Assembly: GCF_009834535.1 (NCBI RefSeq)
Contig: NC_045696.1
Span: 38,504,001 to 38,568,000, forward strand
Origin: Camelus ferus
Lineage: Eukaryota
Direction of reading: 5' to 3'
DNA length: 64,000 nucleotides
Shown here: positions 1,831-51,300 of the stretch, in pieces
Position numbering within the stretch: the first letter of the stretch is position 1
Layout: the number at the start of each line of letters is the position of its first letter
Notes under the pieces: generated by a model
What the model was told of the DNA's origin: nothing
Seen by the model: only the letters and a program-made list of their open reading frames with translations
The model's database searches: none
Position numbers and translations under genes: made by a program

Positions 1831-2202
1831 AGGGAGAAATGGAATGTAAAAACATTTTAAACAATGTGATTCAATGTTGTTTAATGCCATCTCCCAGAAC
1901 TACACAATAATCTCCTTTAATGTGGGCATCCTCACACTTTGGTAAGCACTGTTATCTTGCATATGTGGATTTCAAAAATACCTTTTAAATTAGCAACCTC
2001 AGCTAACATGTGAGGTTACTATTGTGTTACTAATTTTGAATAACAAATTTTATTCATTAATATTAGCATATGTTGACTTTTCTGTGTATGTGTGACACTG
2101 AACTCTGAGATCCGAAGTGGGTATAATTTAGATTATGTTGTATGTGTACAAATTAAATAGTTCTAGCAGTAATAAAAATAATTGTTTTTTCTGTTTTTAC
2201 AG

Positions 2203-2358
2203 CTTGCAGACCAGGATTCTATAAAGCATTTGCTGGCAACACAAAGTGTTCTAAATGTCCTCCACACAGTCTAACCCACATGGAAGCAACTTCTGTATGT
2301 CAGTGTGAAAAGGGTTACTATCGAGCTGAGAAAGACCCACCTTCCATGGCATGTACCA
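2203..2358 (+). CDS. EPHA6: Internal coding exon (probably exon 4) of ephrin type-A receptor 6; Cys-rich/EGF-like region
   Basis: Polypyrimidine tract plus AG (ttttttctgtttttacag, AG at 2201-2202) and donor A|GTAAGT at 2359. 156 nt, phase 1-1. Translates (A)CRPGFYKAFAGNTKCSKCPPHSLTHMEATSVCQCEKGYYRAEKDPPSMACT(R), with typical Eph Cys spacing and matching EPHA6 as I recall it. Missed by the ORF track. Confidence 0.95.
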
Positions 2359-4273
2359 GTAAGTCTATCCATTTTGCATTTGAAAATCCTATTTCCAACC
2401 TTTTGGTGTCTTTAGCCTGATTTTTTTTTTTTTTTAAGAAGTGGATACAAAATCCTACCATCAATGCGATTTGTCTTTGATAAAAGTCAAGGAAAAAGTT
2501 TCTCTTTCTTTCTTAGCATAATTGCTTTTCAACAGCTTGCAGAGAATGTATTAATTCTTCAAATATCACATTGATCCTTGACGTGCAAATGCCAGCACTG
2601 GTTTGGAGGCCCTACAAAATTTTCCTAACCATAATCTGTCCTTAGAAAGTTAAAGCAGTTTAAAACTACCTGAGAATTTATAAACAAAACTTCTGTTCTT
2701 TGCTTCAAACCTTGATCGTTTGAAGGCACATCAATTTAGGACCATCAAGTCTGCTGTGTCGGGGAGCTTCCACATGAAACTTTAAAAGTCATTGTGCTGT
2801 TGTTATGCGGAAAAGTTCCAGTTTTCAAACTTGATATTTGTCCTTAAAGGAAGGTATTTTTGAGTTTATCCACATTTTGCCTCTCACTTTTTCTCCAGTT
2901 TTGGGATTGGAGCCAATAGAATATTAAATGTAAATGTGAAGGTCATTTTAATTCATGTGCTGAGAATTTAAATTATTTGTATGCTCCTGTTACTAAGGTG
3001 TTGTGAAATATATGTATACTTTAAAAATAAAAGTTAATATATTAATGCAAAGCTAAGCCATGCAAAAGTAAAATGTCACCTCTTAAGGTAGCTGTGAAAG
3101 TCTTGTTAAATACTTAAATAAGGTATAGTGAAAATTTGCCCCTCTTGTTGATGAATTGGGGTCAAAATGTTGCTTATCTTGTGTAATTCTATAGAAGCAG
3201 AAATAGATTGAAAATTATGTAATGTCACATATTTCTTAGAGACAATGAGATGTTCCATTCATTTTAACTAATGCAGTTTATAGATTTGTGTGTATTACTG
3301 CAGACATAAAATATAAAGCATTTTTATGGAACACATTTAATAAAAATGCAACAGATTCATTAGTAGATGTAATTTTTGCTTTCTGATTGTAAATGCTGAA
3401 TGACTACTTTCTTCAGAAAATTGTAGCGCAGGAAATTTTTTTTTCTAGGAGCATATTCTTAGTTTATAAGTAGGAAAAGGAAAATTCTAAATATAATTTT
3501 TCACCTAATTGTGGAAATAGTTTTGAACAGGAATAGTTTTTTATTATCGTTTCATATTCTATCCTTTTTGCATGGTTGCTGTATATTACTATATTATATG
3601 GTGAAAAGCATACTCCAGCTTAGGTAGATGGTGGTGTTTCAAATGGCTACAGGTCTGCCAGGGAAGTTCCCTCAAAACTTACATCAGAAACTAAATAATG
3701 CTTCCTAGGTGAGTGATAGAGGAGAATCTCCTCTTTTTATTTAACTGGAGGGCCATAAATAGACGACACATTGAAGGAATAAACTCATTTCCATCAATAT
3801 AACCCCTTCAGTGAGGTGGCAGAGTAGGTAGTTGGGAAGCCTTAGTTCTTTGTGTGAGAAACTATTAAGAAAATAAATAGAGGATGTGACAAGGTCTATG
3901 AACTCAGTAAACTAGTCAGTCATTGTTGAATCTGATATGTGTACTTAATAGCTTAACATTTTATGTTTCTTAGATTTTCTTTTTTTAAAAAATACTTTGT
4001 TAATGCTTTTGTGTTTACAATAATGCTAGCCTGTTTTGGCTATACCAAATGGAAGCAGAGAAAGTTCTAATTCTGGTCATCATTGGGCAGAGCTTTAGAC
4101 AGGGAATGGCATGTGTTGCCATCAGGGTTTAGAAGAGAGAACCCAAAGAAAAATGAAAACTTTTCTCAAGTCCCCCCTAGTCTGGCCACTGGAAGCTCTG
4201 CTACTTCCTTGAGGACTTCTTTGCCTTGTTTTAGCAAAAACTTAGCACAGTGTGCTAGTAAGTTCAGCATCTT

Positions 4274-15565: not shown

Positions 15566-16848
15566 GTATTTTGAAATTCAAAAGGAGCTTTTACAAAAAC
15601 GTGAATTTCTTTCTATGGAGAGAATGTGACAGAGAATCCTTTTCCATCTTCTAAGCAAATTTTCCTGATATCAAATTTAAAGAAATGTTTTTGATTTCTT
15701 AAAACTAAGCCTTTCAAACATGGTAAGAATGTTATTTAATTTGTTATTTATGCAATGAATTACTTTTCAAATATGTATCTTAAGCACAGTCTGTTACAGA
15801 AAAGACTCTGTGGTATTTCACAATGAAGTACATGGTGCAATGCCTAGCACCTAGTAGACCTTCAGTTAATATTTGTTCAATGAATGATATGAAACTGAGG
15901 TTTGAAGGACTGTGATAGTTGTAAAAGATTGTTGATACAATTTTAAGAAAAGGCTGTAATAGTGAGAGGATATTAAGTACTGTATGTAGTGTGATCTGTA
16001 TTGAAAAATAGTGAGAAAGAAGCCTGAGGGAAGATGCTCATCGGTCATCCACGACCAACTTGGTTTATGCAGAGTCTCATTGACGAGTAAGAGGATTATG
16101 TGGATCTCCTGATAAGCTTTTAAAGACACACTTACTTTGTGTTTAGTAAAATTCATCTAAATTAAAGTCTAGACACCATATATATGGATACTTCCTTTTA
16201 TCCCTTCTGTGTAATGCTTCTATCCCATGAAATTGGCAAGACCTAGTAAAAGCTTTTGTGTAGCCTCCAGTTTCCCTTCCTCTTCCTCTTCTTCCAAAGT
16301 GCCTGTCCACGCTAAATTTATGGCCAGTTATTCTCAGCCTATGAGAAACAGATCCTCAGAGATTGTCAAAAGTAATGAATGGGAGTTTTAGTTACAAATC
16401 AAACATAGTTTGAAGACTGAAAGACTGAATACAGTATGTTTTATACATGTAAGTTATTATTTTTTTCAAAATTTTCAAATGGTGATGTAATTATTAAAAT
16501 GTAATTAAAACTATCACATGATTTAAAATAATGTTTGGTTATTGTATATTTTCAGTCAACAAATTTTAAAAGTTTAATTACGGTATCTTTTGGAGATGTA
16601 GCTTTTGGCATTAAATACTGAAATCATTATACCAAAAAGTTAAGATATAGACCATCTCCACTCCTAAGACTCTCTACTTATTAGACTTAATCAGATATTT
16701 TTAACCATATTTCTTTATCATTCCCAGCAGAAGAAAGAGTGCAAAGTAATATAAAAGACTAGCAAGTGTTTGCTGATGACGTTTTCAAGTTAGCATCGTA
16801 ATTCATTGTCCTATACATGTACATTTGTTTTTTAATTATTTTCTCTAG

Positions 16849-17184
16849 GGCCACCTTCAGCTCCCAGAAATGTGGCTTTTAACATCAATGAAACAGCCCT
16901 TATTTTGGAATGGAGCCCACCAAGTGACACAGGAGGGAGAAAAGATCTCACATACAGTGTAATCTGTAAGAAATGTGGCTTAGACACCAGCCAGTGTGAG
17001 GACTGTGGTGGAGGACTCCGCTTCATCCCAAGACATACTGGCCTGATCAACAATTCTGTGGTGGTACTTGACTTTGTGTCTCACGTGAATTACACCTTTG
17101 AAATAGAAGCCATGAATGGAGTCTCTGAGTTGAGCTTTTCTCCCAAGTCATTCACAGCTATTACAGTGACCACAGATCAAGACG
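16849..17184 (+). CDS. EPHA6: Internal coding exon (probably exon 5) of EPHA6; first fibronectin type III domain
   Basis: Acceptor ttattttctctag (AG 16847-16848) and donor G|GTAAGT at 17185. 336 nt, phase 1-1, in frame with the upstream exon (A+GG=Arg). Translates RPPSAPRNVAFNINETALILEWSPPSDTGGRKDLTYSVICKKC...HVNYTFEIEAMNGVSELSFSPKSFTAITVTTDQD, with Eph FN3 motifs LEWSPP-DTGGR-D and NYTFEIEA-NGVS. N-glycosylation sequons NET, NNS, NYT. Confidence 0.96.
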
Positions 17185-17468
17185 GTAAGTTCCATTGCTG
17201 TTCTCTCGAAACAGACCTATCATTCCTTTTATTCCTTAATATCCTTGGTGGACCTATATTCACTGAGGTGCAGTTGTATACTCTATACATTATAGGGGTG
17301 ATTTTCTGGTGGTTGTCCTTATTGTTTCCCAAGGTGCAGAAAGGTATTTTTGATATTACCTCTTAGTAGTATGGTAGTATGGTTAATTGGATATAATGCT
17401 TCTCTCTAATATCTATGCATTTTTGTTTATGAGCAAGTCCATTGAATTACCAGTGAACATCAAACATA

Positions 17469-46614: not shown

Positions 46615-48308
46615 AAAAATTGAACATATTTCCCATTAAAAGTACATTTCTTAAGATATTTACAGTATTCACATAGGGACTTGTTTTCATATCCAGCTTT
46701 TTACAGCAGTTTTATTGAAAGACTGACAATTTCAGTCAGTACTCAGACATTTAGCATCAGCCATCATAGAAACAAAGGATGCTATTGGCAGATTAATTTT
46801 CAACAAAAAGTAAACTAAGTTATGCTACCACAACCAAATTGCCTTGTTGTATGTTTTCTGCATTATTCCGTTACTGACTTGGAATATGAATTTTCAAGCT
46901 AACAACCAACATTAAAAAGAAAAAAGCATATAAGTAGATTAGTCTATATTATACAAAAAAAGACAAATCAAATTAATTTTGAAAAATTTTAGTCCTATTT
47001 TATAGATTAATACTTGAAATATAAAATATTATTTTGTGGACATTAAGACAAATAGGAAAAAAATCTCATAAATTATGAAAAATATTCAGTGAATAATGTA
47101 ATTATGCCAGTCTTCTTGAACTTTATGATTAAATTAGCAAATAAAATGATAGGGTATAGTTTTCTCAGTAGACAATTACACAGTCAGTATTGTTAAGCAA
47201 TCTAAGGTTTATAATTAAAAAATAGTAATAAAAATTATTTTTAAGTAACCAACCACATTTGATGACATATTATTTGTGATAAATAAAATTTTATGAGACT
47301 GAGTTCTAAAAAAGGCAAAGCATCAAGTTTCAATTCAAACAATCAACTAGAAACAAAACTAAAACAAATTTAGTTGTCTCTAATTTAAGGTTACATTCCA
47401 AACTACAGTCTTTACTTAGATATGTAATAAATTCCATGATCTCATAATCCTCTTCTTCTACGCTTAAAATGTTTTAGAGAATTGTGTTTTGTGTTTCTGT
47501 TACTCATTGCTTACTTTACTGCATAGCATGTAATAGAGAATGCATGTTTGAGCCAGTAAATCCCTGTATAAAAAATGTATATCCCTATAATTTTTAAATA
47601 AATTTATTTAATATTTACTCTTCATGACATTGTATACCTACTTTGCATAAAAGCAGAGTTAATATTTTTCCCACAACATATATTTCATCATTATTGTTTT
47701 AGTAGCTTTTGAAATCTGTGCCCTTTGGTTACTTTTGAATAAAAAAAAAATCTCTGCAAGTTCCACATTAAAATTGATTCCCCCCTGGTTTTGCAGGGAG
47801 AAAGAAGCTTGTTTGTTTAAGAACAGTTAAGAGCTCTCATTTCTCTTGTAATCTTAACTTTTATTAAGAGACCATCTTCTCCCTTTAAATCTTTCATTTA
47901 CTTTTTTTCCTTTTCTTTACCCATGAGTCCTATTTTGTATCTCCTCTCTTTTTTTTTTTGTTTACATGTTTAAATTGTATGCTTCAGTTAGTACCTCTAC
48001 TCCTCTGCTGAATCAGCTTTTCTAAAAACGTCTTCCAAATATGTGACTGCCAATTCCATACACTAAGGGGGCACTCATGTCTGAAGTGCCAGTTCAGCAC
48101 TATGGAGTAGAAGTGCTGAATAACGTAACATGAAAAATAGTGAACTATTCCAGATTTCACCCTATTGTTACAATAATGATTTATTACGGTTGCTATTGAG
48201 TTGGAAGAAACAAATCCCCAACGCATTTCTTTCTCATCCCAAGAAATACAGATACATAAAATCCTTAATTTTTATACCAATACAATAATTAGAATGATAG
48301 GTACACAT

Positions 48309-48349
48309 TTAAGAGTCTCATGCTCTACCGATTGAGCTAGCCGGGTGCC
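48309..48349 (-). pseudogene. Tailless retropseudogene of the 5' half of tRNA-Lys(CTT)
   Basis: Minus strand reads ggc-aCCCGGCTAGCTCAaTCGGTAGAGCATGAGACTCTTAA versus tRNA-Lys-CTT GCCCGGCTAGCTCAGTCGGTAGAGCATGAGACTCTTAA (2 transitions). Flanked by the direct repeat gataggtacacatttaa at 48296-48312 and 48350-48366. No 3' half and no poly(A). Confidence 0.9.
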
Positions 48350-51300
48350 GATAGGTACACATTTAATTATATAAATGACATCTTTTATTTTAACAATTTT
48401 ATGGTTTATATGCTTAGCATTTAAATGGTCTTAGATGTAGTAGTTTAGGGAGAATTTTGACTGTATATCCGTCGAAAACTTGTCTGACCTACAGGATATT
48501 GCCATCCCATAAGCCACTGCTGGTAGTCATTGATCTAGCCACGCAGTTGAAATTTAAAACACAACCACTATTCATCTTTTAATAATAAACTTCAGAGATG
48601 TTAGTGATGGTTAAATATTTCTACTTTGTCAAATATTAATTAATTACACAAAAGCATGACTATAATTAATAAGCCTAAGACATTGGGTATGTAGTATTTT
48701 TTGCTCAGAATATTCAGAGTATTTTTAAATTTTTTCTCATTATTTATAGAGGTAATATGATAAATGTATTCTCTAGATGTTCATTATATACTTATAAATT
48801 ATCTAACTAAATTATAAGGCCAAGTAAAGTAAAAAATTAGTTATAGCTAGATTTTATAATCAGTGTACTTTGATATGATCATTCCAAAAATTAAATCAGC
48901 TACTTAGGGATACCCTTTATGAAAGACCTAACGTGTACAATAAATTAACATAATTAAGTCATAAGATAGGTTGTAACTTTATTTTTAAATAGAAATCTTA
49001 TTAATAAATTATAAAATTTAATTAAATTATTAGGAAAAATCTGCAAGAATATGAGATAAATTTGTCCAAATAAAAATACCAAATTCTTTCTCACTGGTCA
49101 ACAAATACTTAAGTGACCTTGTTTCATTCATGTTTTAAAACATGATTATTAAACAATTTATTCCAATTGTTATATACTCTAAAAATATTCCAAAATAATA
49201 TTCGTACATATACATATATATGCATATATGGAATAAAATATATTCCAAAAAAATATACATATTAAAATTTTTACAAAAATACTTGAAACATTCTTTCATC
49301 TGAACTAATATTTGTGGTCATTCTCTAATCAACACTAGTATTAACAACTACTACTTCTTTCTATTAAGGTTGATTTTTACTTCTGATATCAATTTTTATT
49401 GATATTGATAATGTGATATGAATGTTTTATCTAGCTCTAGATTAAGAAATGAAAATTCTATTCTCCTTACTGTAATTGTAAAATAAATGAACTTTAAAAA
49501 CAACAGTTTACATAATACTAATGTGAAGACACCAAGAGAATGTACCAAATAGCAGTTAAGCTTGCTTTCCATGTTCATTCTTGAGAGGGATTAGCTCTAA
49601 AATAGCTTTATACTTGCTGTGACAAAAGCATCTTGATGTATTTGTATGTCAAATATTCTTGCATCATTTTTGACATCTTAATAAAGTGACTTGAGTGATC
49701 ATTTTAAAGGAGTTTTAAAGACAACTATATTCTATTTTTATTCCTTTTCCAAATCCATTGACAGATTTTGTACCAAACATAAAACCACATTTGCCTTATC
49801 TGATCGTTCAGAGTTTTACCAAAGCATTTTATTTCCATTTCTCTCATTGTCTCCTGAATTTGCCCTAGTAATGGGAATTTCAGTTCTACAGATGGGTTTT
49901 GATCAAGTTTTATGGCTAATTTCTATAAGAAATGAAAGGTTAAGACTCCCACAAATCAATCTTAGTGTGGCTGTGACTGCACTTTTTCATGAGCACAGGC
50001 AAGTATTAGATAACAGTTACCACTATGCTAAAGGAATCACAGCATTTTGTTTCACTTTTAGTTGCTTGTTTCTACGATATGGGAAGAACTTAGTGAATAA
50101 TTAAATGTGGTGTGAAGGCTACCACCTTACTTGACAATTCTTTTTAAAAATTAACTATACTCTGGGTCCTTCTTTAAATAGCTTTTTTAACCTTGACACA
50201 TGTCTAAATTGTCTGTAACATGCTAAGAATGCATGACTTAATCCTTGTTACCAAATATATAAAAAGAAACAAATTTTCTGTTAGTCATAGACAAAATAAA
50301 GATTAGCTAATGTTTATTATTTAGTAAGAAATGTAACCATTATTCATTATAATCCACACATATATATTGAGATATTTTTGGATTGATTTGCTTCTAAACC
50401 ATTCTACTCTTCACCAAAGCTCAATATATACAAATGTAATTATTATTTTTTTCCTAATGTCAGGGAAAAAATCATGCGTGTACGCCTCATAAATATATAG
50501 AATCTGATTAGGAATTTGAAATTTAAATTCTAACTTTGTTGCAGTCTTCCTAATTAACTTGGGAAAATCACTCACTGCATTTTTTTTCTACTTAATTTTC
50601 TGATTTTGAAATGGTTTTATTTAACATGCATTTTTAAAACACTGCCAGTTGATAATCTTATAAAAGTGCTTACAGAATATGCACTCTCAATGCTTGCAGA
50701 ATAAGCTGTTTCTTGGAACAAAATTTTACAGAATTTAGTTTTACTGTTATTATCAACAGAGAAACTTACTGTACAATCTACCACACTTCAGTCTCTCTTA
50801 AATTCCTCTTAACTATCCTTTGGCTGGATAGTTTTCTACTGCTGATCAGAGTGCGCGCATGCACCTGTGTGTGTGTGTGAGTGTTTTAGACCTCATAGTC
50901 TTCCTATTCAGGGACTATACGGTCATGTACAAGCATTCCTTTTATCATTTAAGTAAGCTATCCCTTTCAAAACTCAAGAAAGAACAAAAAGAAAACGTAT
51001 TTAGATTGAAGCCATATACCCCAAGGATTGAAAAGCGTTGCTTTGCCTAGAACCAAGACCAAAGGGAAACAAATGAGGGAGACATTGTTTACTTTTAAAT
51101 TAGAAGGATCTTTCCTAGGAGATCTGAAGCAGCCATTTGAGAAGAATAGACATTTATTTTTATCTGAAAGGAAGTTTTAAGAGCACCAAGTGTCTATCAG
51201 CATTAGAGACTTTATAAGGTGATCAGAGAAGACAAAGTCCATTATGTAAAATATATTTGTATGACTTGATAATTTTGTTACATAATTATGTATATGGTTT

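Follow-up and report, generated by a model that had tools for sequence, protein, structure and literature searches.

We examined a 64,000-nucleotide stretch of Camelus ferus DNA (contig NC_045696.1, positions 38,504,001 to 38,568,000, hereafter the window) and conclude that the element at window positions 48296-48366 is very probably a tailless retropseudogene of tRNA-Lys-CTT, made by LINE-1 (long interspersed element 1) from an unprocessed precursor tRNA (pre-tRNA) that carried a GGC leader and was primed within the anticodon loop. The evidence consists of the anatomy of the site, the target motif, a family of sister copies elsewhere in the genome, and the match between the extra 5′ bases of these copies and the leaders of intact tRNA genes. 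The element had been noticed in an earlier reading of the window (the original prediction) as a tailless retrocopy of a 5′ tRNA-Lys-CTT portion. The finding is real, it was correctly read and it is an ordinary one: the class has been known in mammals since 2004.

On the plus strand, GATAGGTACACATTTAA stands at 48296-48312 and is repeated at 48350-48366, with 37 nt (48313-48349) between the two copies. These formed the sole direct-repeat family of at least 12 nt in the interval 47800-48900 (two 17-nt copies at 100% identity and a spacing of 54); inverted repeats were absent from the same interval. The 17-mer of the repeat was found at two places only in the 64-kb window, both of them exact. The shuffle control for this 17-mer was a weak one: with three mismatches allowed, shuffled versions matched 0.42 times on average, and at least twice in 9 of 100 cases. 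The best evidence that the arrangement at the site is not due to chance comes from the 36 further copies of the same build in the genome, described below. In minus-strand orientation, the site runs from the first repeat through GGC, A and 33 nt corresponding to tRNA-Lys-CTT positions 2-34 to the second repeat. The insert contains no T arm, CCA or run of A, and the tRNA part abuts the repeat directly. The downstream repeat (minus strand) opens with TTAA, which is also what the tRNA reads at positions 35-38. The reconstructed insert-free site reads ...ataa TTAAATGTGTACCTATC attcta.... The features of the element are as follows.

48350..48366, minus strand: upstream (5′) copy of the target-site duplication (TSD) in tRNA orientation, reading TTAAATGTGTACCTATC; 17/17 identical to 48296-48312.
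48347..48349, minus strand: GGC, read as a pre-tRNA 5′ leader, on the basis of the same three bases before the intact gene L017 and of the leader test on the family.
48313..48346, minus strand: tRNA-Lys-CTT positions 1-34 with G1>A and G15>A; 35/37 identical to L017 with the leader included, and an exact match to the positions 2-34 pattern. By comparison with L017, this portion comprises the acceptor 5′ strand, the D arm, the anticodon-stem 5′ strand and the loop to C34.
48309..48312, minus strand: TTAA, attributable to tRNA positions 35-38 or to target DNA (4-nt ambiguity in this copy), the putative priming overlap.
48296..48312, minus strand: downstream (3′) TSD copy in tRNA orientation, from the repeat search and the exact 17-mer matches.

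The intact tRNA-Lys-CTT gene used for comparison, L017, came from the genome search described below. Aligned to its last three leader bases and positions 1-34, the insert was identical at 35 of 37 positions. It departs from the gene at G1>A, where the context is CGC and the C of the leader completes a CpG, and at G15>A, where the context is AGT. The original prediction had described perfect 17-bp direct repeats flanking 37 nt, a minus-strand 5′ part of tRNA-Lys-CTT with GGC and without T arm, CCA or poly(A), a tRNA end that coincides with the TTAA of the repeat, and two transitions, one of them at a CpG; all of this was borne out.

Every feature of the tailless class that we tested (5′ end, loop truncation, tail, TSD and target) was found at the site. 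The 5′ end is present, with positions 1-34 preceded by 3 nt. The 3′ truncation falls in the loop, with the end at positions 34-38 of the 73-nt tRNA, whose anticodon loop has 7 nt. There is no oligo(A) tail between the tRNA part and the repeat. The TSD is 17 nt long and 100% identical, against 8-35 nt at 70% identity or more for the class. The target, ataa TT|AAAT, agrees with the class target TT/WAAAA complementary to the RNA end, with a 4-nt TTAA overlap.

A functional tRNA gene was considered and rejected, as a complete cloverleaf was recognised by neither ARAGORN nor Rfam: ARAGORN gave 0 tRNA genes in the 64-kb window, and an Rfam search of 48000-48700 with E up to 10 gave no tRNA match and five chance-level matches to other families. 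All five, taken as chance, scored far below the gathering threshold of their families; the SNORD24-like one at 48588-48656 (minus strand) reached 21.7 bits, where the threshold is 41, with E 0.6. The copy is without tRNA positions 39-73 and has no terminator or promoter of its own; the B box sits in the T arm of tRNA genes. Once pasted in, the element was dead on arrival and has no function.

The search for sister copies covered a 2.09-Gb assembly of 2043 contigs. The pattern, tRNA-Lys-CTT positions 2-34 with up to two mismatches, matched 52 places (labelled L001-L052, the copy in the window being L001), and the reversed-pattern control matched none. For each matching place, we inspected 42 nt before and 70 nt after the match. 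Fifteen of the places were full-length tRNA-Lys-CTT genes and the other 37 were copies cut in the anticodon loop (C34 to U39). ARAGORN called tRNA-Lys(ctt) at 15/15 full-length loci and at 0/3 cut loci tested. Each cut copy enters its own unique sequence, and a duplicate of that sequence immediately precedes the copy. Duplications were scored simply and without gaps, a score of at least 10 being counted as clear, and a clear TSD was found in 29 of the 37 cut copies (median length 16 nt, range 10-22). The statistics below refer to these 29 copies; L002, L003, L011, L021, L024, L030, L034 and L048, with a weak TSD or none, were excluded. The copy in the window is typical of the family in its target (ataa TT|AAAT), its 4-nt overlap and its 17-nt repeat.

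A BLAST search with 701 nt around the site returned 46 candidates, all of them within the tRNA part. The flanks are single-copy in the genome, and no paralogous empty site was found with the same 701-nt query. At least seven tRNA-Lys-CTT genes are clustered within ∼33 kb at G000:C18:14623800-14656010 (L012-L016 and L032; an additional full-length Lys-CTT match, at C18:14649294, was in the BLAST list only), where they are interspersed with Pro and Arg tRNA genes. The non-CpG change G15>A (window position 48332) recurs in L001, L026 and L028, and the leaders of these three copies differ (ggc, agccc and gtggtt, respectively); the shared change may reflect independent hits or a common cause.

Alignment of the 29 5′ flanks to tRNA positions 35-40 gave T in 25, T in 27, A in 27, A in 24, A in 21 and A in 19 of the 29, or TTAAAA. 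The target of the family, TT|AAAA, is the LINE-1 endonuclease site. The reconstructed empty site, which had been described in the original prediction as close to the L1 consensus, holds up both locally (TT|AAAT) and across the 29 copies. A LINE-1-mediated tailless retrocopy on TT|AAAT is supported by the site anatomy together with the 29 copies, whose TSDs measure 10-22 nt and whose target reads TTAAAA. Bases assignable to the tRNA and to the target alike numbered four in 13 copies, three in 8, five in 3, two in 1 and one in 4. Sequence attributable to the tRNA ended at position 38 in 18 copies, 37 in 6, 39 in 3 and 35 in 2. TGT followed TTAAA+ in 4 of 13 such TSDs (L001, L009, L029 and L031) vs. 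a background of 4.6% in 418 kb. We do not claim an extended TGT target motif, as the comparison was post hoc (P ∼0.002).

All 29 copies carry extra bases between the upstream TSD and tRNA position 1 (2-8 nt, with a purine first in 22/29). In the leader test, the last three extra bases were compared with the leaders (the eight bases before each gene) of the 15 intact genes, and the 3 nt upstream of the TSD served as control. In 19 of the 26 copies having at least three extra bases, the final three were identical to those that end the leader of at least one gene. The P value was 1e-10 under a null of 0.156 derived from flank 3-mers, and 4e-7 under a null of 0.251 derived from the G-rich composition of the extra bases themselves. 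The control matched a leader in 4/29. At four bases, the match was 6/14 vs. a background of 0.049, and longer agreements were found for TCTCC (5/5 with L014), GCCT (4/4 with L051) and CAGTT (5 with L012). GGC alone is present in 4 of the 29 copies (L001, L027, L031 and L052) and CGGC in two more (L007 and L038). The intact gene L017 reads ...caGGC before position 1; its gene body is unchanged and a T run lies nine bases past its end.

From these sequence comparisons, the extra bases are probably 5′ leaders of primary transcripts, and GGC at the site is best read as a pre-tRNA leader. The original prediction had left two origins for GGC, a pre-tRNA leader or untemplated addition, and had proposed a search for a tRNA-Lys-CTT locus with a GGC leader. 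That search yielded L017, and of the two the leader origin is the better supported (GGC equals the L017 leader; 19/26 vs. 4/29 in the control). Leaders of 7-8 nt, GGCAGCT, GGCAGTT or GGAAGCT, were seen in L023, L050, L039 and L036; the nearest gene leader to extra bases of the GGCAGCT type, CGGCAACT (L005), is one base off. This suggests that the GGCAGCT-type copies may go back to one highly productive source gene, which started at -7 and has since either been lost or acquired a different leader.

The full analysis was done for Lys-CTT, and Lys-TTT, Ile-AAT and Thr-AGT were compared by counts alone. From position 35 on, tRNA-Lys-TTT reads TTAATCT, the same as Lys-CTT. Positions 2-34 of Lys-TTT matched 10 places, all full-length genes and 0 cut, vs. 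37 cut among 52 for Lys-CTT (Fisher P 3e-5). None of 16 BLAST matches to Thr-AGT was loop-cut. For Ile-AAT, 15 of 31 BLAST matches ended at query positions 35-42 (for example, C8:6018910-6018948), and on these end points such copies likely belong to the same class. The human list of Noll et al. 2015 (PMC5322556, supplementary file 2) has LysCTT 28 times, IleAAT 23, ThrAGT 11 and LysTTT 3 among 667 tRNA-naming rows.

We rejected the idea that the loop UUAA is sufficient for such copies, given that Lys-TTT shares TTAATCT yet was cut at 0 of 10 places. Something beyond the loop sequence decides which precursors get copied. We would propose only tentatively that the loop-cut Lys-CTT retrocopies in general stem from leader-bearing nuclear precursors and that Lys-CTT is strongly selected over Lys-TTT, a matter not settled in print. 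If this is true, microhomology leaves the selection of Lys-CTT unexplained and some property peculiar to pre-tRNA-Lys-CTT is implied; slow maturation of its 5′ end, a germ-cell 5′ fragment that bears the leader, and preferential capture by the LINE-1 particle are the candidates.

The insertion may have proceeded as follows. The template would have been a nuclear, unprocessed pre-tRNA-Lys-CTT with a 3-nt GGC 5′ leader (as in L017), used by LINE-1 in trans. The LINE-1 endonuclease would have nicked TT|AAAT in an Eph-receptor gene intron, and the nicked bottom strand would have paired through its T-rich 3′ end with A37/A38 of the single-stranded anticodon loop (UUAA, positions 35-38). Synthesis would then have run from U36 back to the first base of the leader at the RNA 5′ end, and second-strand cleavage 15-17 nt away would have given rise to the direct repeats. 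The expected product is 37 nt without T arm, B box or tail. We infer from the site and its family an insertion by LINE-1 in the germ line, primed internally on a full-length rather than a fragmentary precursor. Because 5′ leaders are removed early in tRNA maturation, unprocessed precursors are the probable templates, and because the leader was kept, a mature cytoplasmic 5′ half is less likely. Between the two templates that the original prediction had offered, the internally primed unprocessed precursor was thus the more likely and the mature 5′ half the less likely; a precursor primed inside the loop, rather than a mature cleaved half, is the most likely template.

Several points weigh against this reading. 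A match of the tRNA past A38 was no commoner than expected, and U39 was reached in 3/29 copies. At the locus itself, GGC is a single 3-nt match to one of 15 leaders, with a chance of 0.16-0.25, and the weight is carried by the family and not by the locus. Microhomology is not the whole story, given 0 cut copies among the 10 Lys-TTT places. No orthologous or allelic empty site from another genome or individual was seen.

Loop-limited matching of the tRNA fits internal priming and priming from a precursor fragment alike. An already cut 5′ precursor fragment (leader plus positions 1 to ∼36-38) that primed from its own 3′ end is the alternative that survives best, although we consider it unlikely. 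Confinement of the last tRNA base to positions 35-39 in 29/29 copies (38 in 18), with no sign of pairing beyond the loop, is what such a fragment would give, but the same confinement is equally expected if only single-stranded bases anneal. The skew between Lys-CTT and Lys-TTT (37/52 vs. 0/10) would fit a tRNA-specific cleavage, and passages of a preprint (10.1101/2025.02.02.635956) derive tRNA pieces of 1-37 nt from cleaved halves. On the other hand, the part of PMC5322556 that deals with 5S and U2 copies reports that no fragments ending at the breakpoints were found in human small-RNA libraries. A leader-bearing 5′ precursor fragment was itself not demonstrated in this analysis.

A mature 5′ tRNA half, produced by angiogenin-type cytoplasmic cleavage and copied with GGC as an untemplated addition, is a highly improbable template. 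Lys-CTT 5′ halves are abundant small RNAs, and the length of the copy (1 to ∼34-38) equals that of 5′ halves. However, A37 of mature tRNA-Lys bears a bulky modification that would hinder pairing at A37/A38, and a mature half begins at position 1, yet 2-8 extra bases precede that position in 29/29 copies. The extra bases match gene leaders in 19/26 copies vs. 4/29 in the control, and distinct recurring leaders match distinct genes, which untemplated addition does not predict. The view taken in the passages of the preprint (10.1101/2025.02.02.635956) points toward mature halves all the same.

The remaining alternative, the head of a tRNA-Lys-derived SINE (short interspersed element) or a tRNA gene or SINE remnant truncated on its 3′ side by a later genomic deletion, has next to no chance of being correct: tRNA-derived heads are common among mammalian SINEs, but a SINE head is ruled out here because there are only tens of members (52 places in 2.09 Gb at up to two mismatches), because the 37 cut copies share no common body and each enters its own duplicated target, and because the insert is 35/37 identical to a real gene, leader included, while the 46 BLAST candidates were confined to the tRNA part and a deletion would not yield a perfect 17-nt duplication starting at the TTAA of the tRNA. 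The original prediction had named a better match to a SINE head as an outcome that would speak against it, and none of the 52 places has a SINE body.

For the surroundings of the element, we scanned with Pfam the 47 frames of at least 80 aa out of the 158 open frames of at least 60 aa in the window. Matches were obtained in 2 of the 47 frames, both on the plus strand.

2157-2417, plus strand: Ephrin_rec_like exon-like frame (Pfam, E 5.9e-6).
16836-17363, plus strand: fn3 exon-like frame (Pfam, E 3.4e-10).

The solved structures nearest to the fn3 frame were those of EphA4, EphB2 and EphA2. As judged by these two frames, the window lies within an Eph-receptor gene, and the host gene assigned in the original prediction, EPHA6, is upheld at that level. 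The insert is antisense to the Eph-receptor gene and lies 31 kb past the fn3 exon, where the sequence is AT-rich (31% G+C); it is presumably intronic. The non-CpG divergence was 1 in 69 comparable sites, or 1.4%, with a 95% interval (0.04-7.8%) too wide to call the insertion young or old. The 8-kb stretch around the site was represented by 0.87-0.94 of sampled words in 20 of the 23 sequencing runs listed (three organisms, 10 studies).

The locus itself matters very little, being a dead 37-nt intronic insert with no promoter and no plausible function. Given an empty site, the presence or absence of the insert could serve as a clean phylogenetic marker within the host lineage. The family is of modest value, in that comparison of extra bases with gene leaders is a genomic test of cleaved mature tRNA vs. 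precursor origin; in this genome, the leader comparison favours precursors as the origin of 'tRNA-half' retrocopies.

Tailless retropseudogenes were described by Schmitz in 2004 (Genome Res 14:1911), as related in passages of PMC5322556 and PMC3747384. The class is marked by a complete or nearly complete 5′ end (with up to 5 nt of overhang in the screen of PMC5322556), a 3′ truncation of at least 10 nt in a single-stranded region, a TSD of 8-35 nt at 70% identity or more, a target resembling TT/WAAAA and no oligo(A). The target motif derived in PMC5322556 for such copies is TT/WAAAAWW, and the TTAAAA of the 29 flanks fits it. Passages of the same paper note that many tailless retropseudogenes come from unprocessed tRNAs, whose encounter with the LINE-1 particle has to be nuclear, and they conclude in favour of internal priming, as truncated RNAs matching the 5S and U2 copies were not found. 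The insert in the window shares with this class the intact 5′ end, a leader that is sometimes kept, the 3′ end in a loop, the missing oligo(A) and a TSD within 8-35 nt. As far as those passages describe the class, a TT/WAAAA target complementary to the RNA end and a proposed LINE-1 target-primed reverse transcription with internal priming are also common to both. Nothing substantial differs; here the species and locus are others, and the target is TT|AAAT vs. TT|AAAA.

Among the functional tRNA-Lys-CTT genes (L017 and the cluster of L012-L016 and L032), L017 agrees with the insert at 35/37 over its GGC leader and positions 1-34; unlike these genes, the copy is without positions 39-73, T arm, B box and terminator. 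The chimeras of tRNA halves and LINE-1 reported in the preprint (10.1101/2025.02.02.635956) contain the same tRNA part (∼1-37 nt), copied by the LINE-1 machinery. In the passages that describe them, they adjoin a LINE-1 segment, to which most are antisense, and are ascribed to twin priming on cleaved halves, whereas the copy in the window has no LINE-1 sequence between its repeats and its leader points to a precursor. The human LysCTT entries of PMC5322556, compared by coordinates only, have the same source tRNA, size and skew vs. LysTTT, and 23 of the 27 LysCTT rows listed in supplementary file 2 span 35-42 nt. Lys-CTT copies of the same size are already in print for human, and the insert in the window is another example.

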